Part shown: in pieces, positions 2,237 through 63,328 of the stretch
Layout of the letters: each line of letters opens with the position of its first letter
Numbering within the stretch: position 1 is the first letter of the stretch
IMG/VR virus record: IMGVR_UViG_3300005056_000001
Span: 1-64,000 of that record
Strand: one strand, 5' to 3'
From: a virus
DNA length: 64,000 nucleotides
Made by a program: the position numbers and the translations under genes
The notes under the pieces: model-generated
Seen by the model: only the letters and a program-made list of their open reading frames with translations
What the model was told of the DNA's origin: nothing
Databases searched by the model: none

Positions 2237-2237
2237 A

Positions 2238-6448: not shown

Positions 6449-6452
6449 CCCT

Positions 6453-7856: not shown

Positions 7857-8074
7857 TAGTAGCTTTTTTCGTTCTCGTTTAGTATGGCATCATAATTATC
7901 CTTGATGTAGTCAAGGAGATGTTCATTATGTTTTCTTTGTAACGTTTTTTCACACCACAAAAACCAATACGACGGGGCGTCTTCTAATGTTTTTCCGATA
8001 TGTTCCCCAAATTGGATGACAGTATCATCGTCATAAGGAAGATTGTCGTCTGTGGTCTTGGCAAATTTTTGCAT
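7856..8074 (-). CDS. DUF3820-like small protein
   Basis: FGEHIGKTLEDAPSYWFLWCEK resembles the FGKhkGk.l.dvP..Yl.W motif of DUF3820. Confidence 0.5.
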   Translation of the reverse strand: MQKFAKTTDDNLPYDDDTVIQFGEHIGKTLEDAPSYWFLWCEKTLQRKHNEHLLDYIKDNYDAILNENEKSY

Positions 8075-8122
8075 TATTTTTTGTTTTTTGATGAGGCGAT
8101 TGTCTTGCCTCGATTGTTTTTG

Positions 8123-8482
8123 TTAGGTTTTTATTAAAGCATCAATAGATTTGTTCTTTCCCATAAGATCCGTGTCAATAGAAAAATATGCCTTGTTCGT
8201 GAGGTGTGTTGCGATAAATCCACCAATAGTCACAAAATGTTTTGAGCCCAAATGGGTTCTTGTGTCGGCATGCTCATGCTTACAACACGGTGTTGTGAAG
8301 TCCGTACAGTCATGGTATTCCTTTTTGTCTTCTACTTGACCAAAGTCATATACCTGCCCACAATGTTCGCATATAACAGACTCCTCGCATAATGTATGAA
8401 AGAATTTAACCTCTTGGTAAGCCCCGTGTCGGCCAAGTATTCGAATGGTATCGCTTGAAATTTTTACAGTAGTCTTTTCCAT
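8123..8482 (-). CDS. Hypothetical Cys/His-rich protein
   Basis: ORF track. The segments CEHCGQ...HDC...CCKHEH suggest metal binding. Confidence 0.55.
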   Translation of the reverse strand: MEKTTVKISSDTIRILGRHGAYQEVKFFHTLCEESVICEHCGQVYDFGQVEDKKEYHDCTDFTTPCCKHEHADTRTHLGSKHFVTIGGFIATHLTNKAYFSIDTDLMGKNKSIDALIKT

Positions 8483-8550
8483 AATTGATTTTTGTTAAAC
8501 TAATATTGGTAATGTATAACAAAAATACGACAATAACTAAAAAAGTCGTA

Positions 8551-8751
8551 CTAAAAAAGTCTTCCATGGTAAGTAATACCATCCTTGGTTATTGTTCCTT
8601 CGATGGTTCCTGCTTTTGTACCTGCTTTAGTCAGCTTAAATGTGCCATTACTAGATTTTTCGTAAGCAGTTAAAGCACGGAGCATGTCGTCTTTGTGATA
8701 GCACTTATAGCCCTGTAATATAAAATTATTTTTGTCTTCCTTTAATGACAT
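8551..8751 (-). CDS. Hypothetical small protein
   Basis: ORF track. The start lies inside the first unit of a 22-bp tandem repeat. Confidence 0.45.
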   Translation of the reverse strand: MSLKEDKNNFILQGYKCYHKDDMLRALTAYEKSSNGTFKLTKAGTKAGTIEGTITKDGITYHGRLF

Positions 8752-8806
8752 AGTTATTGTTCTTTAATGACATAGTTATTGTTCTTTAATGACACGATTA
8801 CTGTTA
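8741..8806. repeat. 22-bp tandem repeat x3 (third unit degenerate)
   Basis: The unit tttaatgacatagttattgttc occurs at 8741-8762 and 8763-8784. A degenerate copy tttaatgacacgattactgtta occurs at 8785-8806. Confidence 0.8.
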
Positions 8807-9088
8807 CACGCAACCAATCTCAATGCGATTGGCAAGTTCAACGATAGAATCAATGGGCATAATCATCGGCAAATATACCGTACAATTGAAGCTGTCAATC
8901 TCGGTACCCTTTCGGTCGTCCAATATAAGAACAGCCCATCCTTTTGTGTTAAATAGATTTACGCTGTCGTTGAAGCGTTTTGTTTCGCCATCAAGATTTT
9001 TTGTACCAAGATTGGAATATAACACAAATGTTGCAATTGCTCCAAGGGCAAAGGTGAATTTTAAAACTGTTGTATAAGCACTTTTCAT
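8804..9088 (-). CDS. Hypothetical protein with N-terminal signal/anchor
   Basis: The N-terminus is hydrophobic (MKSAYTTVLKFTFALGAIATFVLYS). Confidence 0.5.
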   Translation of the reverse strand: MKSAYTTVLKFTFALGAIATFVLYSNLGTKNLDGETKRFNDSVNLFNTKGWAVLILDDRKGTEIDSFNCTVYLPMIMPIDSIVELANRIEIGCV

Positions 9089-18200: not shown

Positions 18201-20543
18201 TACCTTGACAGAACAAAGAACCTTCATGATGTCCAAATACTTTGAACGTATATTTTTATATACCTCTTTTGGTTTTCCATACGAGGACAGTTTCTCTAGG
18301 TCGTCGCTGCTTGGGTGTTGTTCGCAACTGATTCCGAATTGTGAATTAATCAACCCCTTTAGCAGACTACCAACCTTCATTCGTTTGATGTGGTACTTAA
18401 AATCCTCGGCTTTCCATGCATCCCAATCATCATACTGTATCGGACGGATCAAAGAAATATCAACCTCGAACAAGTCAAACGCCACATCGTCAAAAAGTTT
18501 ATTGTCGTATGCCCCACGGTTTCTATTGACTCGTGCAATAACCTTCTTGTCCAATTTTCGCATCTCACGTATCTCTGACGAGTTTAGCTTTATATTGAAA
18601 CTGTCTGTGGTTTCGACCAAATATCTAAGGTCTGAAGAGCCCGACAGAATATATCTATAATTGTCAAAATTCTTGGACAACGGTTTTAGGTTTTCGCCCA
18701 AACGTTTTTTTACTACTGCAAGGTTGCTGATCTTAATGTTTGTGATATAACACATAGGGATTGCAGACAACACAAAATATTGTTTGTGGTGCATATTGAC
18801 AAACGTCTCGTCGCTGTGTATCAAGGCGATTCCTTGTTCTATTTTACGCATTGAACCATCAAGAATTGTGTCACCACCACCCTTTTTGACCAATCCACCA
18901 ATTGATCCGTCGTCAATTGTTAGCGTTTCGCCAAAAAAATCATGTAGTTCTACATCCTTCAATACTTCCATAACCAAAGTAAATGCATGCGCATAGCCTA
19001 ATTCCTGCAACAACAACGACGATTCGCTATCCTTTTCGGTGTACCTTGGCAAGACTCCGTTGCCTCCCTCCCTGTTCATTGGGGGCGGTTGTAAATACTT
19101 AAAAATGACATGAACCCCTGTTCCTGAAACAGATAGTTTTGACATAAGATAAGGCTCACAGTAGGTATTCGAAAGCCGCTCATGTAGGTATTTTAGTACA
19201 CGAGAGGCAAATTGTTGCTTAACCTTTAGACTTTGTCCCACTCTTTCAATGACGGGTACCAAGGATTGTGTAAATTTTAAATCTAGATCTAAAAATATTA
19301 GACCATTACACATCTCGGCACCAATTCCGAATTTTGTATTCGGTCTTACAGGGGAATGTGTCTGAAACAAGAATGCAATCTTGTCGGACTTAAGGAATTT
19401 TCCGTCAAGAACATAGGGCTCCACAAGATTAAATATCTCTTGTGTGACACCAAACACTTTCTTTGTGTGACTCGCATTCTTGATAGAAGTCGGAAGTGCC
19501 AAAGCAGAAAAACATTCGATTAATTCGCCTATTCTGTAACTGTTGTTGTAACTGCTGACTTTTGTTAGACACTCTTCCCATGTCTCTTTATATTTGGAAT
19601 TTCTAAAGAACGTTTCTATCTTTTTTGTTGATATACTAGAACTATTACAATACGTGAAATATTTCCCTAGCAACGGGAATGGGCTGCTAAACTTTTTTCT
19701 TGCATCCTTTGTGAATAACACGGCAACCTCTGAAAAGCGTGTACCAAAAAACTTTTCTATGGTGTGTGGAAGCTTTAGTTCTTCTTTTTTTCGTAGAAAT
19801 GCCTTTTGTGTGCTGTCGTGGCCCATCTTTGCATAGTCGTATTTGCTGTTGTAGCTTTTTGTCAGGAACACCAACTCGAGTAATGAAAGAAATTCGGTGG
19901 TACCCTCTTCTTGGTTGTTGTTCAGAGACCTGCTAGTCGAGCTTTTTGCATTTTTTGCGGTGGTGTTAATTAGGTTTTTAAGACCGAACCTAGGGTTTGT
20001 TATCTCAAGAAGTGTCTGTATTCCTATACCATTTTCCTCGCAAAAATCCCGACCCTCGTTCGTCATTAACTTTTTGTGGAGCGCACCAAACACCTCAAGC
20101 AATTCGTTTTCGGCCTTGATGTTGTTCTCAATACCATAATCATACTCAAGCCCTTGTTTGTTGTATGGCAATTTTGTCCATTCTTGAAATAGCGGTCTCT
20201 CGAATCCTATCTCGTCCATGAATTTGGCAGACAGCCTTTCGCCTAGATCTCCACGTTTTTTGGCTGTTTTATAAAAATCCCTGTCGATTGACGAGTAGCG
20301 GTAACACTTCAAGAATGCGATCGTGTAAAGAACGGCATCTGCCATATCCAATCTAGACAATCTTAGGGTGTATTTGTTCTGAGTAGGGTCGCTCAGTTCG
20401 GTTTTGCATATGCCGTCAACCTTGTAATTATAAAACGCCATTGTGGCACCGCTCAGAATAGTTTCCTCTAACAAAGACACATCAAGTTCATTGCTGTTTT
20501 TGTTAAAAAAAATTTTCTTTGCAAGCATCCAAAATGAATTCAT
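15291..20543 (-). CDS. Giant replication protein: AEP primase-polymerase domain fused to an SF2 (DEIH) helicase, 1750 aa
   Basis: AEP motif I is GLIFLDLDLKF (aa 415-425, around 19289). AEP motif II is SVSGTGVHVIF (aa 471-481). Walker A is NARAGAGKTT (aa 938-947, around 17723). The DExH box is AIDEIH (aa 1051-1056, around 17387). Confidence 0.85.
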   Translation of the reverse strand: MNSFWMLAKKIFFNKNSNELDVSLLEETILSGATMAFYNYKVDGICKTELSDPTQNKYTLRLSRLDMADAVLYTIAFLKCYRYSSIDRDFYKTAKKRGDLGERLSAKFMDEIGFERPLFQEWTKLPYNKQGLEYDYGIENNIKAENELLEVFGALHKKLMTNEGRDFCEENGIGIQTLLEITNPRFGLKNLINTTAKNAKSSTSRSLNNNQEEGTTEFLSLLELVFLTKSYNSKYDYAKMGHDSTQKAFLRKKEELKLPHTIEKFFGTRFSEVAVLFTKDARKKFSSPFPLLGKYFTYCNSSSISTKKIETFFRNSKYKETWEECLTKVSSYNNSYRIGELIECFSALALPTSIKNASHTKKVFGVTQEIFNLVEPYVLDGKFLKSDKIAFLFQTHSPVRPNTKFGIGAEMCNGLIFLDLDLKFTQSLVPVIERVGQSLKVKQQFASRVLKYLHERLSNTYCEPYLMSKLSVSGTGVHVIFKYLQPPPMNREGGNGVLPRYTEKDSESSLLLQELGYAHAFTLVMEVLKDVELHDFFGETLTIDDGSIGGLVKKGGGDTILDGSMRKIEQGIALIHSDETFVNMHHKQYFVLSAIPMCYITNIKISNLAVVKKRLGENLKPLSKNFDNYRYILSGSSDLRYLVETTDSFNIKLNSSEIREMRKLDKKVIARVNRNRGAYDNKLFDDVAFDLFEVDISLIRPIQYDDWDAWKAEDFKYHIKRMKVGSLLKGLINSQFGISCEQHPSSDDLEKLSSYGKPKEVYKNIRSKYLDIMKVLCSVKVKKSHHDSHEWEEHLFDDGECPWRNTYLTKSSIHRKVGIEMFKSSGLYIRRMEQTLTKEGLPNFKQQYYKQMESTDPKVGKVAKLVASVLSLQNDKVVTDSDFKFLNYKNACQLLIDKNPMNMDIEIVPEDIGGGFYMSDYAPLLEKFLDTRCFNYINARAGAGKTTYFTELATKHSKRVLLVMPYTAPMDSKFGMEAQNREIDIIMNNKNLHPSEKEDWVAAIQAFKPFSGSKNNKEMMEAFKVGTSSVVTFDKFSRMDVELLLNYDYVAIDEIHILATETIRSADADSVCTMALKRIREVLQYKEENPYERVPFIIGMTGTHIYEVNLFRMCEKDVKHGGKKIEVRNIKLEIPHQSQKNMNIILTNSSKDCKTLLCKKIATAMIENRTVICPTDEGSFRAEEIVMGINAHLEHMDSDPLTKDDWHYYKRATKDSVTSKAINGQSVIPNDIKVLFCSVYLSVGVDIKNLSEDKDIEVISTFAKYSAQTLEQFGNRLRKQNINTSLIRSVYNETEKNKKKYYELKRDYNNNLDYRFLKGIHKVIDGEMRARISDDKCVAYFNHYISLNDEKITEQQKIAIWADLSKRFTYTYEDYMGEIKVVQDNLMVLRYIAEQQYNRLGTNIRYIANMFKKHYNYNSVNTTYIDIDEPHIVGAIEQSRSENSEERKKFSVDVAKEIHEFLKTTKPKDIESFISSCKTEMVPSNNNKITINQGDGATLLIEYPEKHHKRLKNITSKLLPIAKQYAYNPKNFSILVDMCMNEKSDGLVIAELERFSNLIDFRNYDILDNYIMVVQQLERLALAKRGKRMSSHIETLESAENKIRKKMIKDITLHLSNNTKPNTQSTIGIAEDTKKKMFEAYESLTKINYVISEDTYAKLKMSVYKLATMVLMNNDVKGISTISDYNRSRLENRVEENLKTFFIIKTNPHTKERDVRLRILPSDYRHIMDNIVKTYGNDNMKFYEFEKYLI

Positions 20544-21125: not shown

Positions 21126-24014
21126 ATGCCACTAGAAAATGTAAATCTTAGTAGTATATCAGACAATGTACTAATGTATGTCACACAGTCGCAGGAGTCA
21201 AAAACCTCGATGTCTTCCATACTGACCTCTACAAATGTACCGATTATTTCAAGCATTAACAAGGCTTCTGCATCTGCCATGTCAGAGATTAAAAAGCAAA
21301 CAACGACAATGATTGAGATGCGGACTAGTATGTCTATCATGGCAGAAATGATGTCTGTTCAAAATGATTTACTGTTCGACTATATGGAGTCACCCACCAA
21401 TGGAGCGACCGCCGAAATTAAAGTCGTTGTCGAACACCCTCCCAACCCCGCAGCAGCAGAACTGAAAATAATCATAGGAGCAGGGCCAAACGCAGACAAC
21501 CTAGTCGAGGAGCTTAGTGTGTTAACACAAAACGAGGGGGGCTTTCTTCGTGTTGTTCAACATTTTTCCACGCTTGGTGACACACTTCAGAATAAGTTTT
21601 CGAACCTTAGCGGATCCATGGCACAATTACAGGCAATGACCGAACAGGCAAATGAATTGAACCAAGCCTCAGAAGGAGGAAGCAGCAGCAAGGGCATGTT
21701 AATTGCGGCAGGTGCAATGGCAGTACTAGGATTGGCGGTAATGGCACTAGGACAGGCTTTGAACCCCATGACAGTTGTTGGAATAATAGGAGCAATGGCG
21801 TTGCTAAATGTGGCATCCCGTGGATTCACAGAAGAAGCAGGCAAGGGTATGTTATTTGCATCTGCCGCAATGGTCGTATTCGCCTTGGCCACAAAGGCTT
21901 TTGAGTTCATTAATTATAGTGCCCTATTCAAGGGTGTATTGGCAATGGGTGCGTTTGCCCTTGCGATAGGAGGATTGGCCATGGTGACCAAGGGTACCGA
22001 TATGGTCGCAATGAGCAAAGGATTGATATTGGCATCTGTAGCCATCGGAATACTTGCACTGAGCACCATGCTTTTTGAGACTGTCACACCAACATCCATA
22101 ATCAAGATGGGACTTTCGTTGTTTGCGGTTACTATTGCACTAGCAACACTTGGCAAGGTAAAGGGTATCACAAAAGGCGCAGCAGGATTGTTAATTGCCA
22201 CGGGTGCCGTTGCGTTATTGTCGTTCTCGATATCCATGTATGACGACGTTGAGTTCACTTCGATACTCAAGGTCGGTGCAGCATTGGGTGTTGTATCAAT
22301 CGCATTTTACTTTATGGGACAGGTGGCAGGAGGGATAATCAAGGGAGCATTGACAGGGGTTGTAATGGCGGGCAGTCTAATAATTCTAGGATATGCATTA
22401 AAACAAATATCAAGCGACGATATTGACCCCATGAAAATTCTTAAATTTGGGGCAATAACAGGGGCATTGGCGGCAGGATATACAATAATAAGCCTTGCAA
22501 CACCCGCAATATTAGCTGCTGCCGTTGGTATTACTGCGATCGGTGGTTCAATGTTGGTATTGACACTTGCACTAAATCAGGCGGCAGATGTTAAATTAGA
22601 CGAGGAATCAGGATCAAGATTTGTCGAGGCAGTAAGACAGGCAGGCAAGGCAATGAACGTCCTTGCATGGGACATCGGAATTGTGACAGCAGGAAAGGCC
22701 GCATTGGTTGCGGTTCCTATGGCGGCGGCAATAGTCCCATTGGCCCTTAGTTTCAAACTATTGTCCAACACCAAAATGCCTAGTCAAAAAACTGTTGATA
22801 GCTTTGGTAATGCAGTCAGGGGTATTGCCGACACAATTAGCGGTATCGGAATTGTACAGCTTGGAAAAATAGGCATTGCAACACCCATGCTTATTGGTAT
22901 GGGACTGTCAACAATAACGATGGCCAAGTCTATTAGCTCCTTTTCAAGAATATCCGAGAACCCCGAGGTTATTCAGATGGCCGTTATGGGCGTAGACCAA
23001 TTCATTACAGGATTTGCCTCGACCATGGAAAACAACCAAGGCAATTTCGAGAACATGAGAGGCGGTATCAGGAGCTTGGTAGGTATCAGTGGCTTAATGT
23101 CGGGCGTTGCAACGGGTGTTCAAAAAATGGCCAATCTCGAGTTTACCGAGTCTGAAGTCGTTAATGGGAAGTTAGTGGTCAAGAGTACCCGTAAAATGAC
23201 CACCGATGATTTCAAGAATATGGGAACATCACTTGGAATGGTTATTAATGCACTAACCGAACCACTTGCCAAGGTGGGCGCAAAAGGGAGTGGTGCCACA
23301 TTTTCACTTTTTGGGTATGATGTATTTGCCGTCAATTCAAACGAGGTACAACAGGGTATACAGGCACTTTCAGGAATAGGAAACGTTTTTAATCCTATTG
23401 TGAATGTAATAAAAACATTTTCTGAACACGGTATAGACGCCACGAAAGTCGAAGCGTTTGGTACACTTCTTGGACAATTACTAGGCAGTATCACAAATAC
23501 AATACATTCGTTTGTTCTTGGCGAGGACTCTGATGCCAAATTAGACACGCTTGAACGTTATAGCGGAATCACACAACAATTTTTTGGATTCTTTGGGGCA
23601 ACAGACCTAAGCCCTGCGGTAACAGCCGTCGGACAGTTGGGCGAGAATCTTCTAATGGTCAAGGATGCGCTTAATGAGATTGACATTGACAAGATGAAGC
23701 TCCTTAACGATATCGTTTGGAACACAACACATTTTGAGGAGGCCAATATTGAAATGATGATGAAGCTAATACAAGAGTTGAAAAACTTAATGGGTGTGGT
23801 TGCAAAAAGCGGCGGAGGAGACACGGTAACCGACTCTAGTAGTGTGGGTGACACAACAACAAATGTGTTGACAGAAGAAGACACAGGCACAGAGACCGAT
23901 GTGGTCAAGACAGACAAGAAGTCTGCCTCAATGGATACAAGCAAAATTGAAAGTCTGTTGGGTGATTTGATTGATGTGTTCGACCGTACAGTCAGGGTAA
24001 AGGTAATAGAGTAA
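21126..24014 (+). CDS. Tape-measure-like / multi-TM virion protein (962 aa)
   Basis: The ends are predicted to be helical and polar. The central ~550 aa hold about a dozen Gly/Ala-rich hydrophobic segments (e.g. MLIAAGAMAVLGLAVMALGQAL), as in many tape measure proteins. Confidence 0.55.
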   Translation: MPLENVNLSSISDNVLMYVTQSQESKTSMSSILTSTNVPIISSINKASASAMSEIKKQTTTMIEMRTSMSIMAEMMSVQNDLLFDYMESPTNGATAEIKVVVEHPPNPAAAELKIIIGAGPNADNLVEELSVLTQNEGGFLRVVQHFSTLGDTLQNKFSNLSGSMAQLQAMTEQANELNQASEGGSSSKGMLIAAGAMAVLGLAVMALGQALNPMTVVGIIGAMALLNVASRGFTEEAGKGMLFASAAMVVFALATKAFEFINYSALFKGVLAMGAFALAIGGLAMVTKGTDMVAMSKGLILASVAIGILALSTMLFETVTPTSIIKMGLSLFAVTIALATLGKVKGITKGAAGLLIATGAVALLSFSISMYDDVEFTSILKVGAALGVVSIAFYFMGQVAGGIIKGALTGVVMAGSLIILGYALKQISSDDIDPMKILKFGAITGALAAGYTIISLATPAILAAAVGITAIGGSMLVLTLALNQAADVKLDEESGSRFVEAVRQAGKAMNVLAWDIGIVTAGKAALVAVPMAAAIVPLALSFKLLSNTKMPSQKTVDSFGNAVRGIADTISGIGIVQLGKIGIATPMLIGMGLSTITMAKSISSFSRISENPEVIQMAVMGVDQFITGFASTMENNQGNFENMRGGIRSLVGISGLMSGVATGVQKMANLEFTESEVVNGKLVVKSTRKMTTDDFKNMGTSLGMVINALTEPLAKVGAKGSGATFSLFGYDVFAVNSNEVQQGIQALSGIGNVFNPIVNVIKTFSEHGIDATKVEAFGTLLGQLLGSITNTIHSFVLGEDSDAKLDTLERYSGITQQFFGFFGATDLSPAVTAVGQLGENLLMVKDALNEIDIDKMKLLNDIVWNTTHFEEANIEMMMKLIQELKNLMGVVAKSGGGDTVTDSSSVGDTTTNVLTEEDTGTETDVVKTDKKSASMDTSKIESLLGDLIDVFDRTVRVKVIE

Positions 24015-50807: not shown

Positions 50808-50885
50808 TTTAGTATCGTGTATGTATTGTGCTTGGTCATGATTTGTATTTTTAAATAGGTCTGTGTCGTATCTGTTATAAACTAG

Positions 50886-50972
50886 TAGAAGAAGTGGGAG
50901 TCGAACCCACACGAGTCGTTAGCTCCGAACGGTTTTCAAAACCGTGGCCACCGCCCATTGGCTTGCTCTTCC
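50886..50972 (-). tRNA. tRNA-Ser(UGA): tRNA-Ser (anticodon UGA), class II, 87 nt
   Basis: Hand fold. Acceptor GGAAGAG/TTCTTCT. Anticodon arm ACGGT-TTTGAAA-ACCGT. Long variable arm. T-arm GTGGG-TTCGACT-CCCAC. No encoded CCA. Confidence 0.75.
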
Positions 50973-51283
50973 TAATCTACAATACAACAACAAATTTCTT
51001 CAACTAATTGGGTGTCGTTGACAACATATGCGTTTCTTGATGGTAAAAATAAGAATGCCTTTGAATTGTTGACCCGTTCGATAAAGTCTGTTGTTATTAA
51101 ACCGTCTCTTACAGAAAAAATTTCTAGACTTTTCATTACACTTTCGGCAACAGCACTCACGGTTTCGTGTTTTTCAACAACTCTATTTTCGGAATCGCTC
51201 CAAAATACATGGGGACAGGAAACCTCAATAATCAATTCTTCCTTAATTCCATATTTTCCGACCAAATCATTCTTAGTAATCAT
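50972..51283 (-). CDS. Hypothetical protein embedded in the tRNA block
   Basis: ORF track. Its stop abuts the 5' end of tRNA-Ser. Confidence 0.5.
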   Translation of the reverse strand: MITKNDLVGKYGIKEELIIEVSCPHVFWSDSENRVVEKHETVSAVAESVMKSLEIFSVRDGLITTDFIERVNNSKAFLFLPSRNAYVVNDTQLVEEICCCIVD

Positions 51284-51354
51284 ATTGTATTTTGTTTTGT
51301 TTTGTTTTGTTAATAATCACATAACGCAATTATACAATATTTATTCAAAACTTG

Positions 51355-51437
51355 TGGGGGTAGAAGGACTCGAACCTACTCAGTCATAGACACTAGATTT
51401 ACAGTCTAGCACGGCTCTCCAACTCCGTCGCACTCCC
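51355..51437 (-). tRNA. tRNA-Tyr(GUA): tRNA-Tyr (anticodon GUA), class II, 83 nt
   Basis: Hand fold. Acceptor GGGAGTG/TACCCCC with an A4-C69 mismatch. D-arm ACGG-AGTTGGAGAG-CCGT. Anticodon arm CTAGA-CTGTAAA-TCTAG. T-arm GTAGG-TTCGAGT-CCTTC with U50-U64. Confidence 0.75.
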
Positions 51438-51545
51438 ATATTAACATGGTATATTTTTTCGATTATGACACTTTGTTTGGTTAAGCTATCATGGAAACTT
51501 TCCACGGAAGGGCTTCCACCTTCTTGTCTTCATAAAAGTTTCTTG

Positions 51546-51620
51546 GGCACATGACGGGATTCGAACCCGTGACCCTCGGTACCACAAACCGATGCTCTAA
51601 CCGTCTGAGCTACACGAACC
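51546..51620 (-). tRNA. tRNA-His(GUG): tRNA-His (anticodon GUG) with encoded G-1, 75 nt
   Basis: Hand fold. G-1 pairs with C73. D-arm GCTC-AGACGGTTA-GAGC. Anticodon arm TCGGT-TTGTGGT-ACCGA. T-arm ACGGG-TTCGAAT-CCCGT. Confidence 0.8.
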
Positions 51621-51631
51621 ATATATTTTAG

Positions 51632-51704
51632 TGGAGCAGGAGGGACTTGAACCCACATCCTTCGCATTGCAAATGCGATGCTCAGCCAATTGAGCTACTG
51701 TCCC
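51632..51704 (-). tRNA. tRNA-Ala(UGC): tRNA-Ala (anticodon UGC), 73 nt
   Basis: Hand fold. The G3-U70 identity pair is present. A4-C69 mismatch. Anticodon arm TCGCA-TTTGCAA-TGCGA. T-arm GTGGG-TTCAAGT-CCCTC with U50-U64. Confidence 0.8.
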
Positions 51705-52238: not shown

Positions 52239-52718
52239 ATGACAACACAATTAATAAACCATCTTTCAAGCGAGTCTGAGCGTGTCGGTGCCTTGGATAC
52301 CATTTACTCACAAATGATTGTATCAAAAAGCCTGTCTGCCTATCCAAACTTTTCGGATTGGCTTTATAAAAAGGTTGGCCTTGGTATAGTCATGAACCAA
52401 AGGAGTATTGTGCTAAAATACATAAACAAAAGGCTTGTGGGCTTTGTCATACTAAAACATCACAAAGAGCATAAATTATGCACCTTTTTTATACTCGACA
52501 ACTATCGTAAGCAAGGAATTGGTCATAAAATGATGACGGAATCCATGGCATTTTTGAATACATTCGGGAATGTGCCTATTACGATAACAATGTCCGTGTT
52601 TGTTGTTTCGGATTTTAACAAAATTCTTACGAATCACGGTTTTGTCTTTGATTATGTCGTTCAATCCGAATACACAAAGGATGTTCCTGAGTACCACCAC
52701 ATCAGGCCCTTGTCCTAA
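52239..52718 (+). CDS. GNAT-family N-acetyltransferase
   Basis: VGFVILKHHKEHKLCTFFILDNYRKQGIGHKMMTESMAFL matches GNAT beta4 and motif A (R/Q-x-x-G-x-G/A). Confidence 0.65.
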   Translation: MTTQLINHLSSESERVGALDTIYSQMIVSKSLSAYPNFSDWLYKKVGLGIVMNQRSIVLKYINKRLVGFVILKHHKEHKLCTFFILDNYRKQGIGHKMMTESMAFLNTFGNVPITITMSVFVVSDFNKILTNHGFVFDYVVQSEYTKDVPEYHHIRPLS

Positions 52719-53122
52719 TCCCTTTTGAATGCACTTTTTCTCATCTTGAATCTATTGCATAACTTCTCAATAACACCGTCGGACAATTCACGGTCGCCCT
52801 TTAGTATATCCGAAACATGTTCTTCTGAAACATCCAATATTTTTGCCAAATCTTTTTGGTTTATTTTGTGGTCACACATTAGCGAATTAATCATTTCTAA
52901 TGGAGTACATTCGGTTTCGTCAAAACCATTTCTTGTGTCCCATTCATCAATAAACGTTTCCAATTCCTCTATTTTTGAATCATATAACACATCGTTCTTG
53001 TGGACATAGTCCTCTAACAGGTCACAATATCTATTATACATGTCAATATCTATTATTCGTTTCATTGCTAATTGGTTTAATTTTATTGTTTTAATTGGTG
53101 GCTTGTCTACAGTCAGAGACAT
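52715..53122 (-). CDS. XRE-family HTH protein (HigA/VapI-like C-terminal HTH)
   Basis: NQKDLAKILDVSEEHVSDILKGDRELSDGVIEKLCNRF. It converges on the GNAT gene and overlaps it by 4 bp. Confidence 0.6.
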   Translation of the reverse strand: MSLTVDKPPIKTIKLNQLAMKRIIDIDMYNRYCDLLEDYVHKNDVLYDSKIEELETFIDEWDTRNGFDETECTPLEMINSLMCDHKINQKDLAKILDVSEEHVSDILKGDRELSDGVIEKLCNRFKMRKSAFKRD

Positions 53123-53363: not shown

Positions 53364-54143
53364 CTATACTCCCAATGTTCTTGTATAATTTTGAAATCTA
53401 AGCTTCACGATCTTGGTACGGTCACTATTCCTTAAGACAACACCCTCCGACCTCATTTTTGCGCTATCAGACAGAGCCACCAAGGTTTTTGGAACAACCG
53501 TATTAAGATAGTCCAAAATGGTTTGGTGATCGAAATTTTTGATATCAACAGGGAGCTGAGGAACCTGTGCAAAATTGTATTTTTTACAAAATTCTGTGAG
53601 TTCGGTGTTTGTGAGGAAGTCGTGTCCATACACAATACCGTTGTCTGTTTCGTATTCTCGGAATGACGAAATTTCTTTGATATCCAACTCAAGAATAGAC
53701 AAATCCTTGATTGTTATTACATCAAAAATACGACAGCCGTATTCATTCTTTGTTCCGTACTGTTTTGAGGCCTTACCAACCGATCCACCATAGAGCTCGC
53801 CATAAATGACGGTCAATTCCTTGAAGTCTGTCGGGAAGGTAACCATTTTTCTGAGTTCGTCAACGATATCCAAGGCAGAATTACGACATAGGTCTTTTGA
53901 ATATGTCAAAATCTCTTTTCTTGAACCAATCAAATATTCATTCCCCCAACAGATCATACGAAAATTTGTGCCATCAACCTTTTCCGAGCCACACAGCTCA
54001 TCGTCCAACGAAATGTCGGTTGCAAGCTCATTCGTCAACATACCCCTGTCACCGATTTTGTGGAGCGTTTTGATTGACGGATACTTGGTCAACGTATTAA
54101 TCTTGTCGATGCCATATTTTAAAACAAGTTCTTTTAATTTCAT
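53364..54143 (-). CDS. ATP-dependent RNA-ligase-family nucleotidyltransferase (no OB domain)
   Basis: Motif I is SEKVDGTN (Lys55 codon at 53979-53981). Further motifs are IYGELYGG, CRIFDV, SEGVVLR and KIVKLRF. The 259-aa length fits stand-alone RNA ligases. A TATATTTG box lies at 54180-54187 (minus strand) upstream. Confidence 0.65.
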   Translation of the reverse strand: MKLKELVLKYGIDKINTLTKYPSIKTLHKIGDRGMLTNELATDISLDDELCGSEKVDGTNFRMICWGNEYLIGSRKEILTYSKDLCRNSALDIVDELRKMVTFPTDFKELTVIYGELYGGSVGKASKQYGTKNEYGCRIFDVITIKDLSILELDIKEISSFREYETDNGIVYGHDFLTNTELTEFCKKYNFAQVPQLPVDIKNFDHQTILDYLNTVVPKTLVALSDSAKMRSEGVVLRNSDRTKIVKLRFQNYTRTLGV

Positions 54144-54252
54144 TTTTACTTTTATGATTTGTTAATATTTTGATTTAGGCAAATATACAAAAAAGGCAGG
54201 ACAATGTATAATCATGTCCCACCTTTCTTGCGCAATATTTTTAATCAATATC

Positions 54253-56388
54253 TTATGCCTGATACAAATTACCGTCAGACCCAAACAAGATCACACCCTC
54301 CAATGTCGGAATTTCTCCGAGCGCAACAGAAGGGATACCCTTCTCACGGCATAAATCTGCCGTGTGGTTGAACAAGCTTTTGTTTGTGACAATAACACCC
54401 TTATAACCGTCAATGTCGGAAGGCGAGGCAAAATCACCGATAAAAATATCTTTTACATCAACTTCCATGGCATCATCAACCGAAAGATTAAGACCCTCGT
54501 GTAAAAGAGGCATGTCTGTGTCGAATGGTTTGATTTCGATGTTACCAACCATGTTTTTATATGCTGCCTGACTAATTTTGCCACACTGATAAAGATCCGT
54601 AAAATAGGCAACCTTGATACGCTTGGTAAGGATGGCAGGCTTTAGTTGGGTGATAATAATATTCCCCTTGTTGTTGACAATAAATTCCACAACACTTGCC
54701 TTTGTTCCAATTTCTCTTGCCTTCATCACCTCCTTGAGGTATGCAATTTGGTCGCCTGTCAGAACATCATAAATGTCACTACCGACAACATTCCCAAGAT
54801 TGTATTCGCTTGCGTCCCCTTGTACACACTCCCCAAATAGTCCTGTCTTGCCTGTAATCGGGTGGTGGTTATAAACAACCCCACCAACTTTAGACTCGAT
54901 ATATTCTTGGATACCAAGCGCAAAACCAAATCCCCATTCCTCGGGAAACGTGTTGTTGTCTTTTCCTTCCTTAATGATAGCCACAATTTCTGTTTTGAGT
55001 TCTTCTAATGTCACAACCCCAATATTTTTTGTTGGCAACTGACCCGATAGCGGCATCATAGGAGAAGTTCGAAGGATAATTTTTTTGCCCTCAAGACTTG
55101 TTACCCCCCTGAATGAGCACTTGGCAGCAAATGTGAAATCGTCAAGTGCCTCGAGTCCTTTTGTATAGATATCCTTGCACATATTCGAATTAAGTACAAC
55201 AAACACAGGAACCTCAGTTTTGCTATTCCCACGGAGATTTTTAAGATTTTGGTATTTTGTGCCATTCCACTTGTCTCCTTTGCCAATCATATTAAATTGA
55301 AAGATATCTTTTATGTTTCTTCCAAGCTCAAACCCTTTATAGCTTTCTGCCGCCAATGCCGCATAGACATCCGCCACTTTTACTTTGTTTTGGGAGCGTG
55401 AATCGACCACAAGTGTTTCCAAACCAAACCGAACATGCCATTCCAAGACGGTGTGTAGTTGTGAGATCGTTTCCATGCCGTGCATATGCCATGTGCCGTT
55501 TCTCATATAGAGGCAGTTATCCTTTTCCCATCCATTGCGCATTACGGCAGGCTCTAGATTATTTAGATGAACCAATATCTCATTTGCATCCAAATAAATT
55601 TTCCCTTCAGGATCCACCATTGCAGAAAAGCTGTGAAAGCCGTATGATTTGTTGTCATAGGAACAACCCGATTGCTGTCTTAATTGCTCGTTGCTCATGT
55701 ATCCCAATACATAGGCAGGAGTATAATCATAGCCATCAGGCATCCAATTGTCATGGATTTGGTTGTGTGGCGTTGTATTGAATGATGTCCCAAACAGCTC
55801 ATTTAGTGCAGCCAATTCGGAAATAAAAGCCTCCATTTTTCTTCTGTAAGAATGTTTAGGGAAAAGCAGTTCCTCCCACTCGTTTTCTTCAATCTTCTTG
55901 AAGTGTTTTGCAAGAACGTCCCTGTCGTATGAGTCGATTGGGGCAGTCTCGTATTCGGAGTCTTCCTTTTTTACAAAGTGTTTCGTAAGCAAATCCTTGT
56001 CATACGAATCAAGTATAGAACACTCCAACTTATTTTTTAACTCGACCAACTTGTCGCCTGTATTGACCATCCATGCAACATCATAGATTTCTTTTACAAG
56101 CTTTTCGGCCACCCATGTTCGGTTAAGCACCAAATGAGTTTCAGAATCACACAAAGAAAGAATCGCCTTCTTTTCTGTTTCGACGTGTGGATGGTCACTG
56201 AAGGTCATAAACCTCCGACCCTCAAGGATGTCAATATAGATAGCATCAGACAAACCATTTTGTGTGGCTTCTCTGAGCATGGATATTGCGCTCTTGACTC
56301 GAAGGTGTGTAAACTCCTCCCTTGCAACATATGTGATACGTTCTAATTCGGCCTTTAGGTCTACTCTTGGTATTGTTATGCTTTCCAT
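54253..56388 (-). CDS. PEP-synthase/PPDK-like phosphotransferase: unknown N-terminal domain, ATP-grasp, phospho-His swivel domain
   Basis: ATP-grasp (PPDK_N-like) blocks are VPVFVVL, IILRTSPMMPLSGQ, GIQEYIESKVGGVVYNHHPITGK, FGECVQGD and VVEFIVNNKGNIIITQLKP. The swivel domain is GVIVTNKSLFNHTADLCREKGIPSVALG (His675 codon at 54364-54366). No PEP/pyruvate TIM-barrel follows. Confidence 0.75.
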   Translation of the reverse strand: MESITIPRVDLKAELERITYVAREEFTHLRVKSAISMLREATQNGLSDAIYIDILEGRRFMTFSDHPHVETEKKAILSLCDSETHLVLNRTWVAEKLVKEIYDVAWMVNTGDKLVELKNKLECSILDSYDKDLLTKHFVKKEDSEYETAPIDSYDRDVLAKHFKKIEENEWEELLFPKHSYRRKMEAFISELAALNELFGTSFNTTPHNQIHDNWMPDGYDYTPAYVLGYMSNEQLRQQSGCSYDNKSYGFHSFSAMVDPEGKIYLDANEILVHLNNLEPAVMRNGWEKDNCLYMRNGTWHMHGMETISQLHTVLEWHVRFGLETLVVDSRSQNKVKVADVYAALAAESYKGFELGRNIKDIFQFNMIGKGDKWNGTKYQNLKNLRGNSKTEVPVFVVLNSNMCKDIYTKGLEALDDFTFAAKCSFRGVTSLEGKKIILRTSPMMPLSGQLPTKNIGVVTLEELKTEIVAIIKEGKDNNTFPEEWGFGFALGIQEYIESKVGGVVYNHHPITGKTGLFGECVQGDASEYNLGNVVGSDIYDVLTGDQIAYLKEVMKAREIGTKASVVEFIVNNKGNIIITQLKPAILTKRIKVAYFTDLYQCGKISQAAYKNMVGNIEIKPFDTDMPLLHEGLNLSVDDAMEVDVKDIFIGDFASPSDIDGYKGVIVTNKSLFNHTADLCREKGIPSVALGEIPTLEGVILFGSDGNLYQA

Positions 56389-56431: not shown

Positions 56432-56487
56432 CAAAAATATATTGTTATCAAAATGTATTTGTTGGTTTTAACATTTCTTTAACACTT
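56432..56487 (-). promoter_or_regulatory. Intergenic cassette: TTAACA element plus TAnnTTTG box
   Basis: 56466-56487 reads ttttaacatttctttaacactt. 56432-56439 caaaaata is TATTTTTG on the minus strand, upstream of the ATG at 56388. Confidence 0.5.
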
Positions 56488-56515: not shown

Positions 56516-57433
56516 CTAAGAGAGGTATACCATGCTATCCACAAACCTCTTTGTTTTTGGTGGCATATATTCAATGTCATTACAGAACACATCCATACGC
56601 TCTAGCCGATCTGTGATAATGTTGTCCATTGTCTCAGGGAACGCCTTAATGTAATTATTGTCAAGAAATAACTTTTCTATGCTGTCTAGACCACCAATAG
56701 AGTCAGGAATTGTACTTATTCTGTTATCCGAGAAACACAAAAACGTTACATTTTTCAAATTTCCGATATTTGAAGGAATAGCCTCCAACTGATTAAAACG
56801 AAATATTGCATACTCAAGACGTTCTAAATCACAAAAGCTATCAGGAATCTTTTTTAACTTTGTTCCTTGGCAATAAAAATATACCAACGATTTGAGGTTG
56901 CCTAGGTTTTCGGATAGACGTTCTATGTTGTTGCGTCCAATATTTAAAGTGTACAACCTAGGCATTTCATAAATACTATCAGGAATACCTGTCAAAAAAT
57001 TATCGTCCAAGTCTAAACGTTCTAAATTCTCAAGATTACCGATACATTTATTAACAGACGACATCCTGTTGTTTCTAAGACAAAGAGATGTTAAACATCC
57101 AAGGTTGCCTATGGTGTCGGGAAGTGTTGTTATATGATTATTACTAAGGTGTAATTGTTTTAAGTTAGTTAAAAGCTCTATGCTGTCAGGAACATATTTC
57201 ACTCTATTCGAAGTTATTGAAAGCTCCTCCATGTCGTGTATATACATGACCAATGACTTCGGGACACAAGCCCTAGTGTCAAAAATATCATTATCCTCAA
57301 GCCACCCATTCAGCTTTTTATATGACCCTAAATCCAATTCGATATCGTTCGACTTTGCCAACTCAAACCCCAATTCTATATTCGACTCGTCGCCTGTTTT
57401 GAGCAAAGACATAATTTTTTCTTTTCTGTACAT
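56516..57433 (-). CDS. Leucine-rich repeat (LRR) protein
   Basis: About ten 23-aa repeats of the form LxxLxLxxNxIxxIPDSIGxL (e.g. LTNLKQLHLSNNHITTLPDTIGNL, LENLERLDLDDNFLTGIPDSIYEM). Confidence 0.8.
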   Translation of the reverse strand: MYRKEKIMSLLKTGDESNIELGFELAKSNDIELDLGSYKKLNGWLEDNDIFDTRACVPKSLVMYIHDMEELSITSNRVKYVPDSIELLTNLKQLHLSNNHITTLPDTIGNLGCLTSLCLRNNRMSSVNKCIGNLENLERLDLDDNFLTGIPDSIYEMPRLYTLNIGRNNIERLSENLGNLKSLVYFYCQGTKLKKIPDSFCDLERLEYAIFRFNQLEAIPSNIGNLKNVTFLCFSDNRISTIPDSIGGLDSIEKLFLDNNYIKAFPETMDNIITDRLERMDVFCNDIEYMPPKTKRFVDSMVYLS

Positions 57434-58795: not shown

Positions 58796-59371
58796 TCAAT
58801 CATTGAATCTAAACTTATAAACCAATGAGCTTTTTTCAAGGAAGACATAGTATACGATGTCCGACTGTGACAATTCCTCGTAGCGGACATCATCAATGCT
58901 TGGTATATTAATATTTGTCGTCGCATTACCAACAATCAACCCTCTTTGGGTTGTTGTTTTGGTCATATTTCGGTTGAGTTCGGCTTTGAATAACTGTGCC
59001 TTTAGAGATTGGTCATAAAGAGTAACCGAACAGTCTGAATCACCTAGCTTTTCCAACAGCTCGTTTAGATTTGTTGGGTTGCTGTAGCTTTTTAGGTTTT
59101 CAGAAATACTACCTCTGCCAATTTTATATTTCTTGTTCAGTGCATCAATTTCCTTCTTAACCTCTTTTATATATTGGTTATGAATAGCCGAACACTCATC
59201 CTTGAGGTCTGCCATCTTTACAATATCCTCGTCTAATGCTTTTTTGGCAAATTCGGCACCAACCAAGGACTGCATACTTTCTCTAATAATGTTGGCCTTT
59301 TTTTGTACCTCCTTAGAGGACATTTGGTCAAAACGTTTACTTTCGTTAAATACTTTAAATTTTTGTCTCAT
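58796..59371 (-). CDS. Hypothetical coiled-coil protein
   Basis: ORF track. Confidence 0.55.
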   Translation of the reverse strand: MRQKFKVFNESKRFDQMSSKEVQKKANIIRESMQSLVGAEFAKKALDEDIVKMADLKDECSAIHNQYIKEVKKEIDALNKKYKIGRGSISENLKSYSNPTNLNELLEKLGDSDCSVTLYDQSLKAQLFKAELNRNMTKTTTQRGLIVGNATTNINIPSIDDVRYEELSQSDIVYYVFLEKSSLVYKFRFND

Positions 59372-60361: not shown

Positions 60362-63328
60362 TTACACAATCTTAGAAGTTCCCCATGACAGACTTTTCTT
60401 GCCGTCATTGTCCTCGGTGCGCTCCATTAGATTATCAAACAAAGTCGAATCAATTCCAAATTCTTCAAATACTCCATCAAGCGTGGCGGTGTCTTTGGTT
60501 TTGATAAACTCGTTAATTTTTTCTTTGTCCATTAGCAGGGCCAAGATGTTTTTTTCTATTGTTCCGTCATACGACACGAAATGTACATCAGTATGATTCA
60601 CAGAATTATAACGAATGAAACGGAAATAAAACTGTTCCATTCTTGGGATATTCCATTGAAGACCCTCGATGATTACCTTGTCACAAGTCGGAATGTTAAC
60701 CGATGACTTCAGGGATTGTTGTGTGCATACCAAAATACCATTCTCTGTGGCCTCGAATCTGTCTAGGATTGGTTGACGCTTGTCGATACTTACGTCCCCT
60801 GTAATCACAAAAATTTGACGCTCAGGAAAAAGAATTGTAAGGTTTTCGACATATAGTTTTATGGTTTCTTTTCGGGTACATCCAATTGCAACTTTTTCGT
60901 CAAATTTTTGACACAATTGGGCAATTTTATAAAACTTGGTTGGTAGGTCTCCCTTGTAATCCGAAAATGAATTCGGGGTACTACATGCCTTGTACAACAA
61001 TTGCATTTGGCGAACTATTCTGAGGGCAGCATCTTTTCGTGTGCTGCCTGTTGACCCATAAAACTCGCTGATTATGCGGTGGAACTCACGGATTATCACG
61101 CCATAAATTCTTGCCTCATCGGCTGTTTGGTTCACATACTCTGTGTGTACCGTGAATTTTTCTCCTGCAATTTCTTTGAATTTTCTTGTTATGATTGATT
61201 GGTCAATGATCGAGACCAATTTGTCTTGATTGAAAACGTCTTGGTTTTGTTTCTTGATTCCAAAAACGGTTGCCTTGGAAGGATTAAAACAAGACTTGAA
61301 TTGTCCGAATCCCAAACGTGCCTTGTATGGCTGCATGTGGTTTTTATTGTCACGACTTTTTATGTCGCCTTCCTTGTTTTGGACATAGGTCATTTTACAG
61401 GAGTCCAACATATTCACAGAATTATTGAACAACAATTCTAATTGTGGGTATAGTTCTGTGATATTGTTTCTTGTGGTGGTTCCTGTTGCCAAAAACTTTC
61501 TTTTAACACGTCTAAAAATGTCACGGCTTGCACGAGATCGTTTTGATGTGTTTGAACAAATTTCGTCGGACTCATCCATGACAAGACAAACCTTATTACT
61601 CAACGACTTAACCAATTTTTGTAGCTCTTTTTTGAACTTGATAAGCATATTAAAACTAATCAACACAATAGAACCACTGTTTAAAATATGGCTTCTTTTG
61701 GTTATTATGGTATACTCCTCGCCCTGTGTATTCAAAAACTCTGTCCATGTTGTTTTAATGGCCAAAGAAGGAGCCACTATAAATGTTTTTTTGACTTTTG
61801 GTTGGTTGTATTTTGCAAATGCATAACACCCGCCCGTTTTTCCGCAACCCTGTTGCCAATTACAGATTGAATATTGTTTTTGTAAAAAAAGGTTTAGGTC
61901 ATGCGCCTGTATATTATTAAACTTACAGGTCACGGTTTTTTTGTTGCCTAATTTGTCGGTGTCTTCTCTCAGAAAACTAAAATCTTTTAACCATGCAGCA
62001 ATAGACTCACTTTGGGTCATTTCTGAAAATGGTGTTGTTATCTTTTTATTCTCTGCGATCTTGCGTGTGATCAGTTTATTGTATGGGTGGTCAAGATCTT
62101 TTGTCGGTATAAGGTTGGTACCCAACACCAAGTCGCTAAGGGAATACTTTTTCTTTTGTGCCTTTGGGGCCTTACCCTTGACAACAAAGCCATGACGGTG
62201 TTTTACGACTCTTAGAGTCTTGTTGGCCGCCTTTTTATTTTGGGTCTTAACAATTCTTTTTAGATAGGCAAGAACCTTGTTTTCGGTAAGCATTTTCTTG
62301 CTCCATTCGCTGTCCTCCATGCCCATTGGCTTGGTCTGTGTATTGAATTTTTCGATATACGAAATCGCACTGTCCAACTTGGCAGATATTTCGCCGTGTT
62401 GCTTGATTTCAAAAAGGTATTTCTTGACTCTAAACCCAAAATCATCATTTGTTAGCGACTTGTTAAACTCAAGACGTAACGCCGATTTAATATTGTGGCG
62501 CAATGCCAATTTCTTGGAAATTTCTGATTTTGTGCTAACACTATTCGTGTAAGGAACATCCTTGAGATGTTCGGACTTTTTTTGAAGATAGATAACCTTG
62601 GTATTATAATTCTTTACCCCCAAGGCACCAAAGGCATCATTTGTCAGTTGATATTGACCCACGAAATTAAACATCCTGTCTAGGTCATTTATTTGAGACT
62701 TATAATACATCTCGTCGCCAAGGTACGAAGTCGGAACAATGGCCGCCACAACCCCGCCATTTTTTAACATCTTGGCACACATTTTAAAAAACAGTGCATG
62801 GCTTCTGACATGCGTGTTTGTTTCGGTGTCGAACCACTCAAGACTAAAAGGAGGATTGCCCAACACGACATCAAACTTATTTTCGATGGTATTGTTTGGC
62901 AGACTTGCCTCGGTAAAGTCTGCATCAGGATACAGACGGTTGGCAACCTGCACAGACTTTGGACAAATATCCATCCCATGAAAAACGGATTCGTTAGGCA
63001 CAAAATTACAAAACACACCCATTCCACATGTCGGATCCACAATCAATTCGTTTGAGGCAAGACCCACGATATCCACAATATCACTTGCAATCATGGCAGG
63101 TGTATAAAATTGGCCATTCTCGACCTCCTTTTTTGCTGCCGAGTACTCATAGTAATTACGATAGTCTTTAAATTCTAAACCATGCAACCCTCCATCACCC
63201 GTATAGGCATTAAAAATTTGCTCATTGCTAATGGCAGCGGAATCCAATTGGATTGCCATTAAGATCTTACTATTGACCGTTTTGCGGTGGTCTTGTGGTA
63301 TTGTATCGGTAAGGATATTGTATTTCAT
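60362..63328 (-). CDS. N6-adenine DNA methyltransferase fused to an SNF2-family helicase (988 aa)
   Basis: The MTase motifs are GQFYTP, VDPTCGMGVF (motif I) and VLGNPPFS (motif IV, codons around 62846-62857). The helicase motifs are QQGCGKTG (Walker A), LVMDESDE (DExD), LATGTTTRNN (SNF2 motif III) and a C-terminal lobe ILVCTQQSLKSSVNI. Confidence 0.85.
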   Translation of the reverse strand: MKYNILTDTIPQDHRKTVNSKILMAIQLDSAAISNEQIFNAYTGDGGLHGLEFKDYRNYYEYSAAKKEVENGQFYTPAMIASDIVDIVGLASNELIVDPTCGMGVFCNFVPNESVFHGMDICPKSVQVANRLYPDADFTEASLPNNTIENKFDVVLGNPPFSLEWFDTETNTHVRSHALFFKMCAKMLKNGGVVAAIVPTSYLGDEMYYKSQINDLDRMFNFVGQYQLTNDAFGALGVKNYNTKVIYLQKKSEHLKDVPYTNSVSTKSEISKKLALRHNIKSALRLEFNKSLTNDDFGFRVKKYLFEIKQHGEISAKLDSAISYIEKFNTQTKPMGMEDSEWSKKMLTENKVLAYLKRIVKTQNKKAANKTLRVVKHRHGFVVKGKAPKAQKKKYSLSDLVLGTNLIPTKDLDHPYNKLITRKIAENKKITTPFSEMTQSESIAAWLKDFSFLREDTDKLGNKKTVTCKFNNIQAHDLNLFLQKQYSICNWQQGCGKTGGCYAFAKYNQPKVKKTFIVAPSLAIKTTWTEFLNTQGEEYTIITKRSHILNSGSIVLISFNMLIKFKKELQKLVKSLSNKVCLVMDESDEICSNTSKRSRASRDIFRRVKRKFLATGTTTRNNITELYPQLELLFNNSVNMLDSCKMTYVQNKEGDIKSRDNKNHMQPYKARLGFGQFKSCFNPSKATVFGIKKQNQDVFNQDKLVSIIDQSIITRKFKEIAGEKFTVHTEYVNQTADEARIYGVIIREFHRIISEFYGSTGSTRKDAALRIVRQMQLLYKACSTPNSFSDYKGDLPTKFYKIAQLCQKFDEKVAIGCTRKETIKLYVENLTILFPERQIFVITGDVSIDKRQPILDRFEATENGILVCTQQSLKSSVNIPTCDKVIIEGLQWNIPRMEQFYFRFIRYNSVNHTDVHFVSYDGTIEKNILALLMDKEKINEFIKTKDTATLDGVFEEFGIDSTLFDNLMERTEDNDGKKSLSWGTSKIV

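Follow-up and report, generated by a model that had tools for sequence, protein, structure and literature searches.

Enzymes of the dikinase family offer a versatile route to the phosphorylation of unusual acceptors with ATP via a swiveling phospho-histidine, and those that lack the phosphoenolpyruvate (PEP)/pyruvate domain, such as rifampicin phosphotransferase (RPH), HpeHI, and VadK, have each uncovered new biology. RPH, HpeHI, and phenylphosphate synthase are small-molecule dikinases that convert ATP to AMP, Pi, and a phosphorylated product (PMC4844700, PMC12167813). VadK (Rv1127c) is a truncated pyruvate phosphate dikinase (PPDK) whose autophosphorylation on His422 depends on ATP and Mg; it binds methylcitrate-cycle enzymes and regulates the methylcitrate cycle via protein partners (PMC13400623). 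Truncated PPDK-like genes are also already known in phages, where PPDKs have been treated as auxiliary metabolic genes in work that reports no functional study of them (PMC12038007). Here we describe a very rare and strongly diverged minimal form of such a gene, which lies on the minus strand of a 64,000-nucleotide stretch of viral DNA (positions 1 to 64,000 of IMG/VR record IMGVR_UViG_3300005056_000001; hereafter, the window) and encodes a protein of 711 residues. The C-terminal half of this protein is very likely a remote homologue of the nucleotide-binding and phospho-His domains of PPDK; it is preceded by an orphan region of 375 residues, and no PEP/pyruvate domain follows it. Gene context was inspected over the 64 kb of the window, out of a genome of about 369 kb.

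An original prediction, made from the letters of the window, had read the C-terminal half as an ATP-grasp domain followed by a swivel domain with a conserved histidine, His675, in the motif FNHTA, and had proposed the Pfam models PF01326 and PF00391 as a check. Both searches stayed under the gathering thresholds. Residues 371 to 648 alone matched PF01326 and no other Pfam model, at 15.1 bits (E = 0.014; threshold, 27 bits), and residues 633 to 711 alone reached 19.2 bits with PF00391 (threshold, 23.1 bits). The homologue P0003, a fragment 75% identical to the query, passed the latter threshold with 23.9 bits, and a longer piece that contains this fragment (L025) scored 22.6 bits with PF00391 and 11 bits with PF01326; for the segments concerned, the two models were the top or sole Pfam matches in each of two independent members of the family. 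The full protein had no match above threshold in PHROGs, NCBIfam, PADLOC, or the PDB sequences, and a profile search of the PDB sequences also gave none. The prediction had named the lack of a significant match to either model as grounds for abandoning it, and the Pfam scores come close to that outcome; it is the profile-profile and fold evidence that rescues the identity. Because the Pfam scores remained sub-threshold, more sensitive methods were needed.

We therefore compared profiles. Reference profiles were made from genes in annotated records, namely E. coli ppsA, plasmid-borne PEP synthases, RPHs, seven full-length PPDKs, and three truncated PPDKs; the PPDK profile (10 sequences) included the truncated plasmid PPDKs of Rhodococcus and Streptomyces. 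In hhalign, a four-sequence profile of the viral family aligned with the PPDK profile over residues 482 to 697 with a score of 77.6 (95.7% probability; E = 9e-9), against 17.7 for the reversed alignment and 24.4 for the best of 20 column shuffles. With L025 added, one local alignment joined residues 376 to 697 to PPDK positions 24 to 490 over 317 columns (score, 96.6; 97.2% probability; E = 3.5e-11) and was collinear from the GGK motif through the swivel domain. Matches to the PpsA and RPH groups were much weaker (E = 4e-4 and 6e-4, respectively), and because of this difference the profile comparison places the protein on the PPDK branch rather than on the RPH or PpsA branch.

Pairwise alignment and fold comparison pointed the same way. 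BLASTP aligned residues 575 to 688 with positions 328 to 434 of E. coli PpsA (E = 2e-4), with His675 opposite His421. AlphaFold2 (AF2) gave a mean predicted local distance difference test (pLDDT) score of 33 from the single sequence and of 40.8 with a four-row alignment, the latter model being confident only at residues ~620 to 711. When this low-confidence model was searched with Foldseek against 350,542 PDB chains, all 10 matches at E ≤ 1e-3 were to PPDK, and the next ranks were held by 2fm4, the phosphoryl-carrier domain of PPDK (template-modeling score TMt, 0.51), and then by RPH and EI-N. Together, the hhalign match, the PpsA alignment, and the Foldseek result bear out the predicted pairing of an ATP-grasp with a swivel domain that carries His675.

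While this architecture held, the domain limits given earlier (residues ~390 to 625 and 640 to 711) shifted: the ATP-grasp covers residues ~376 to 590, a linker covers residues 591 to 625, and the swivel domain covers residues 626 to 711. AF2 places helices at residues 589 to 601 and 607 to 614, in and next to the linker. The helical insert of PPDK (~125 residues) is cut down to residues 454 to 485 (32 residues), and the swivel domain, which is also shortened relative to PPDK, was modeled with block-mean pLDDT values of 60 to 90 across residues 621 to 711, mostly above 70. The motif FNHTADLCRE is invariant in all four family members, which come from three assemblies, with N674, H675, T676, and D678 to R681 as the invariant columns. 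His675 aligns with the histidine of the PPDK TSH motif; the residues before it are FN, not TS, and the downstream arginine (R681) is retained.

Other PPDK positions are also kept: besides H675 and R681, these are K378 (the GGK lysine), R440 (the VRSGA arginine), G449, Q494, E568 (the DIEF glutamate), and Q581 (the LQTR glutamine), and the LQTR arginine is conservatively replaced by K583. The functional roles that we attach to these positions are presumably those described for the equivalent residues of the C. symbiosum enzyme. Columns conserved in PPDK (≥90%) were identical in all family members in 25 of 105 cases, compared to 9 of 212 for the other columns, a roughly 5.6-fold difference. Read from the alignment, these positions look like an active site that has been maintained while acquiring some unusual substitutions, and the protein is probably catalytically competent.

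As had been predicted, the C-terminal PEP/pyruvate TIM barrel is missing. The protein ends 36 residues past His675 and contains no such domain (PF02896), and a hidden Markov model of the barrel, built from 11 PPDK and PpsA sequences, gave no signal against the window translated in all six frames (best E = 0.11). The description of the N-terminal region as uncharacterized was equally sound. Residues 1 to 375 gave no match in Pfam, PHROGs, NCBIfam, PADLOC, or the PDB; none in hhalign to the domains of PPDK, PpsA, or RPH, with the TIM-barrel and RIF-binding parts included; and none to the protein's own C-terminal half, to other open reading frames (ORFs) of the window, or to the C-terminal tails of phage PPDK-like proteins. 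A weak recurring match of residues 307 to 358 to PpsA 650 to 703 (E = 0.07 to 0.5) was dismissed as noise.

The only sequence that aligns to this region is that of a paralogue, P0002. AF2 modeled residues 1 to 375 with pLDDT values below 50; residues 1 to 215 are mostly long predicted helices, and residues 255 to 375 form a predicted alpha/beta segment in the low-confidence model that is conserved in P0002. The region is 125 residues longer than its P0002 counterpart, and it holds a tandem repeat with a unit of 21 residues, starting at residues 127 and 152, that is present as a single copy in P0002. The two paralogues are 28 to 31% identical in the N-terminal region versus 38 to 45% identical in the catalytic half. 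The earlier claim that residues 1 to 370 form a substrate module is not backed by a homologue or by a confident structure, and the region diverges faster than the catalytic half. Faster divergence is also what would be expected of a specificity or targeting module, and residues 1 to 375 may serve as a substrate or targeting module.

Relatives of the protein are very few. An exhaustive phmmer search of 1.84 billion representatives returned three, giving a family of four sequences: the query (P0001), P0002 (581 residues; 39% identity over residues 255 to 710), and two C-terminal fragments of 70 and 102 residues (P0003 and P0004). The 1-kb scaffold that carries P0003 (L025; NCBI GCA_040384045.1, JAWVHH010317255.1) encodes nearly the whole catalytic half, interrupted by a run of Ns, with 51% identity to the query over residues 376 to 580 and 61% over residues 595 to 711. 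Word-indexed searches of 5.8 billion proteins, whether started from the protein, from the family alignment, or from P0002, returned only the query or P0002; tblastn of the protein found no counterpart among 50,697 phage records; and no relative was confirmed when viral and metagenome contigs were scanned with back-translated patterns. The identical protein was called on two contigs, a 14.8-kb JGI contig (sample 3300029927) and a 368,684-bp ENA contig. The JGI sample is a reassembled North Pond metagenome from cold oxic subseafloor crustal fluids (10.1101/2020.08.03.235341). P0001 and P0002 are singleton clusters from that same sample, and both are listed with a 368,684-bp contig. Because they share the sample and this longest contig, they are very probably two diverged paralogues, 34 to 39% identical overall, in one phage genome, with P0002 lying outside the window.

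We then set the protein beside the systems that resemble it. PPDK (EC 2.7.9.1; for example, that of C. symbiosum, 1DIK) was its best profile and fold match, and the two proteins share the order of nucleotide-binding ATP-grasp, three-helix linker, and phospho-His domain, as well as the retained Lys, Arg, Glu, Gln, and His residues named above. They differ in that the viral protein is only ~20% identical to PPDK, has no TIM barrel, has the reduced helical insert, and has gained the 375-residue N-terminal extension. VadK, compared here by its published description, is likewise derived from PPDK and consists of only the ATP-binding and phospho-His domains, with no PEP/pyruvate domain. It is a protein of Actinomycetota, ~490 residues long and canonical in its PPDK sequence, and it has neither an N-terminal extension nor a substrate module, whereas the viral protein is far more diverged and lacks the helical insert.

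Phages hold further examples. In a tblastn search with a bacterial PPDK fragment spanning the N-terminal and swivel parts, PPDK-like genes without a full TIM barrel were found in 65 phage records. Annotated cases are those of Vibrio phages PG28 and J26, Stenotrophomonas phages DLP3/DLP5, Rhodobacter phage RcZahn, and Bacillus phage G (gp139). The proteins of the Vibrio, Stenotrophomonas, and Rhodobacter phages have 647 to 734 residues, of which residues 1 to ~506 are canonical PPDK and the remaining 140 to 230 form a non-PPDK C-terminal tail. At all three loci examined, a phosphatase gene of the protein tyrosine phosphatase (PTP) type lies two to three genes downstream, followed by a gene for a hypothetical protein of 326 to 357 residues. 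Published work regards the gene as a metabolic PPDK and offers no explanation for this shared gene order; the phage genes are filed as auxiliary metabolic genes, yet those examined lack a full pyruvate domain. These phage proteins are canonical, with Pfam E values of 1e-42 to 1e-48 and identities of ~40% with bacterial PPDK, whereas the protein described here is highly diverged, and their extra region is C-terminal with a PTP neighbor, whereas ours is N-terminal and no PTP-like ORF is present in the window. In hhalign, the match to the phage proteins (E = 3.9e-6) was no better than that to bacterial PPDK. The phage G protein gp139 (L029, positions 4839 to 5936) has 365 residues, about the size of the catalytic half, with canonical PPDK_N and PEP-utilizers domains; it was a Foldseek match in BFVD (E = 2e-5), and it also comes from a jumbo phage, of 498 kb.

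The original prediction had taken RPHs and glucan-water dikinases as models, and neither fits well. RPH and HpeHI belong to a sister branch. They combine an ATP-grasp, a swivel His, and a non-TIM acceptor module, the same three-part logic as in the viral protein, but in RPH the acceptor domain lies between grasp and swivel, where the viral protein has only the 35-residue PPDK-type helical linker. In hhalign, the RPH group aligned in short pieces only (E = 6e-4 and 1e-3), and residues 1 to 375 had no similarity to the RIF-binding domain. In glucan-water dikinases, a carbohydrate-binding module is followed by the His domain and then by a C-terminal nucleotide-binding domain. The viral protein differs in its order, with the orphan region first, the ATP-grasp next, and the His domain last, and it has no match to a carbohydrate-binding module. 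PpsA, for its part, was a weaker profile match than PPDK and has the TIM barrel that is missing here. VadK and the phage PPDK-like genes are better precedents than either of the earlier models.

With moderate confidence, we favor a reading of the gene product, drawn from its sequence, as a stripped-down and highly diverged PPDK-type phosphotransfer core that would act as a VadK-like, autophosphorylating His phosphotransferase with protein partners. From the features described above we infer its enzymatic activity, its dikinase stoichiometry, the role of its N-terminal region, and the nature of its acceptor. ATP would be bound by the minimal ATP-grasp, and His675 on the swivel domain would be pyrophosphorylated or phosphorylated at the ATP site. 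The swivel domain, tethered by the linker, would then move the phosphate off the ATP site and deliver it to a non-pyruvate acceptor, presented by the orphan N-terminal region or by a separate partner; pyruvate would be out of reach because there is no PEP/pyruvate domain. Protein partners would act as targets or regulators, and it is our tentative suggestion that a protein partner is itself the acceptor. Candidates are the neighboring leucine-rich repeat (LRR) proteins. An LRR gene, the only LRR ORF in the window, lies 127 nt upstream on the same strand, and at least five LRR genes (phrog_6688) form an array around P0002 on a contig of 9 kb (L002, positions 1 to 9010; Ga0315564_101454), which makes the adjacent LRR protein a possible partner. 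The lack of a pyruvate domain, the orphan N terminus, the second paralogue, and the LRR neighbors therefore argue that the viral "PPDKs" include at least some non-metabolic phosphotransferases with another target. An acceptor, if found, could define a new mechanism of phage-host interaction, together with the smallest functional PPDK-type ATP-grasp known; as the family is tiny, the immediate impact is modest at present.

Several observations weigh against this reading. In the Pfam scan of the full-length protein, PF01326 gave no match, and the sole match was to PF00391, at 14.5 bits (E = 0.026). The Foldseek result is support rather than proof, as the model is poor outside residues 620 to 711 and the match is partly sequence driven. 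Within the active site, the aspartate of DIEF is V566 (V or L in the relatives), TSH has become FNH, GEDV is degenerate, and the second glycine of GGK is Thr or Ala in the family (GTK in the query). Reportedly, mutagenesis of the C. symbiosum enzyme found that D321 matters in PPDK. Without the helical subdomain, moreover, the handling of ATP and Pi may differ. As for the partners, no LRR genes were seen at the fragmentary loci of other family members (L024, from JGI 3300041080, and L025), and a block duplication, rather than a functional link, could have left LRR genes beside both paralogous loci, which probably belong to one genome.

Alternatively, the protein might work in the manner of RPH, phenylphosphate synthase, and HpeHI, with residues 1 to 375 binding a hydroxyl compound (an antibiotic or toxin, a metabolite, or a defense signal) to which phospho-His675 would transfer the beta-phosphate of ATP. 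Most characterized enzymes of the dikinase family that lack a TIM barrel do use small molecules (PMC4844700, PMC12167813), the viral protein has an extra, domain-sized orphan region, and RPH is among its weaker Foldseek matches. We nevertheless regard a small-molecule acceptor as unlikely: the protein falls on the PPDK branch by the profile scores given above; it has no similarity to the RIF-binding or HpeH substrate domain; its extra region is N-terminal and largely made of long predicted helices, unlike known acceptor domains; and no match to a PADLOC or anti-defense family was found. It is distinctly unlikely, in our estimate, that the protein is a phage effector kinase whose phospho-His shuttle would be aimed at a macromolecular target (host proteins, or RNA with 5'-OH ends to be sealed by the adjacent RNA ligase) by the fast-evolving N-terminal module, by LRR adaptors, or by both, with the two paralogues reflecting two target specificities. 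The core might also be a catalytically dead relic, retained as a scaffold or binding protein such as a structural or host-interaction factor that works with LRR proteins. The extreme divergence, with scores under threshold for both Pfam models, would suit a relic, as would the changes in the DIEF Asp, GGK, GEDV, and TSH motifs and the deletion of the helical subdomain. However, K378, R440, E568, Q581, H675, and R681 are invariant across paralogues of 34 to 39% identity and across members from other metagenomes, and the preferential retention of PPDK-conserved columns also speaks against decay; we find a dead protein very unlikely.

Phosphorylation of a nucleic-acid end, which the original prediction had also raised, gains from an adjacent RNA ligase and loses on two other counts. 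In this scheme, the 5'-OH ends of cleaved tRNA or other RNA would be phosphorylated and the neighboring ligase would seal them, countering host anticodon nucleases. The ligase gene, with its KxDG motif intact, follows on the same strand after 109 nt, four tRNA genes lie 2 to 3 kb further on, and the neighboring genes scanned showed no P-loop polynucleotide kinase. Between the two genes, however, stands a strong hairpin with a U-run. The RNA of positions 54185 to 54256 (minus strand) folds with -25.5 kcal/mol (z = -5.8; none of 200 shuffles folds as well), and the hairpin probably ends the transcript ahead of the ligase. A terminator scan had passed over this hairpin on account of its 11-nt loop. 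In addition, no RNA ligase was found in the fetched 9-kb contig around P0002, and no end-healing enzyme, phosphoesterase included, was seen among the neighboring genes scanned. To our knowledge, no dikinase-family enzyme acts on nucleic-acid ends. The hairpin terminator and the ligase-free contig around P0002 led us to set aside an operon with the RNA ligase as the leading idea. A functional link between the two genes is not supported, and we consider an RNA 5'-end kinase a remote prospect. The VadK-like phosphotransferase remains the reading that we prefer. The coordinates of all features are collected in Table 1.

Table 1. Features of the PPDK-like gene and its surroundings (positions in the window) and of the phage loci used for comparison (positions in the locus named)
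Feature	Position	Strand	Basis or remark
Complete ORF, 711 residues plus stop, ATG start	54253..56388	-	Program ORF list
N-terminal orphan region, residues 1-375	55264..56388	-	No database match; only P0002 aligns
Internal tandem repeat, residues 127-172 (DSYDKDLLTKHFVKKEDSEYE / DSYDRDVLAKHFKKIEENEWE)	55873..56010	-	Read from sequence and alignment
Predicted minimal ATP-grasp (PPDK nucleotide-binding) domain, residues 376-590	54619..55263	-	hhalign to PPDK; sub-threshold PF01326
Predicted helical linker, residues 591-625	54514..54618	-	hhalign to PPDK linker helices (nucleotide-binding/central)
Predicted phospho-His swivel (PEP-utilizers mobile) domain, residues 626-711	54256..54513	-	PF00391, AF2, Foldseek 2fm4
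Codon of His675, predicted phospho-acceptor, motif FNHTADLCRE	54364..54366	-	Family alignment, codon check
LRR protein, 305 residues, upstream neighbor	56516..57433	-	Pfam LRR_8, E = 1.8e-26; phrog_6688, E = 9e-44
Terminator-like hairpin and U-run	54187..54231	-	Directly after the stop codon of the PPDK-like gene; loop of 11 nt
RNA ligase, 259 residues, downstream neighbor	53364..54143	-	PF09414, E = 2e-18; phrog_548; KxDG, K55
Four tRNA genes (Ser-TGA, Tyr-GTA, His-GTG, Ala-TGC)	50885-51704	-	2-3 kb downstream of the RNA ligase
PPDK-like locus of phage PG28	L026 3995-8139		
PPDK-like locus of phage DLP3	L027 3956-8593		
PPDK-like locus of phage RcZahn	L028 3893-9137		

The LRR genes of phrog_6688 form a multigene family in the phage. 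The RNA ligase has no sequence relative in the PDB at E ≤ 0.01, and its gene is followed by a helix-turn-helix (HTH) regulator gene and a GNAT acetyltransferase gene and then by the four tRNA genes. The GNAT gene (plus strand, 52239 to 52718) and the HTH gene (minus strand, 52715 to 53122) converge, their 3' ends overlapping by 4 nt. TAnnTTTG is the -7 promoter consensus of Bacteroidota. Copies of this motif lie ~45 to 50 nt upstream of both the PPDK-like gene (56432 to 56439, minus strand) and the ligase gene (54180 to 54187, minus strand), and the motif is mildly enriched across the window (101 matches versus 80 ± 8 expected). A sigma-70 promoter scan was uninformative for this phage, which is probably of Bacteroidota type. 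Farther upstream, a 191-residue ORF (58796 to 59371) matched the Myotubularin phosphatase family (E = 9e-4); this assignment was dismissed since the ORF lacks CX5R and the match falls outside the catalytic region.

A fusion of an N6-adenine methyltransferase with an SF2 helicase (988 residues; 60362 to 63328, minus strand) matched phrog_24008 (E = 1e-279) and also gave a DarB-like antirestriction match and PADLOC matches of the mad2 and BrxHII-like kinds. Proteins of the Tenacibaculum jumbo phages pT24, PTm1, and PTm5 share 38% identity with this fusion, and because of this resemblance we take the element, on sequence grounds, to be a jumbo phage whose host is probably a member of the Bacteroidota. 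Two long ORFs have no Pfam match, one of 1750 residues (15291 to 20543, minus strand) and one of 962 residues (21126 to 24014, plus strand). GC content peaks in the block at 22 to 24 kb (0.443), where, in contrast to the remainder of the window, the GC skew is positive.

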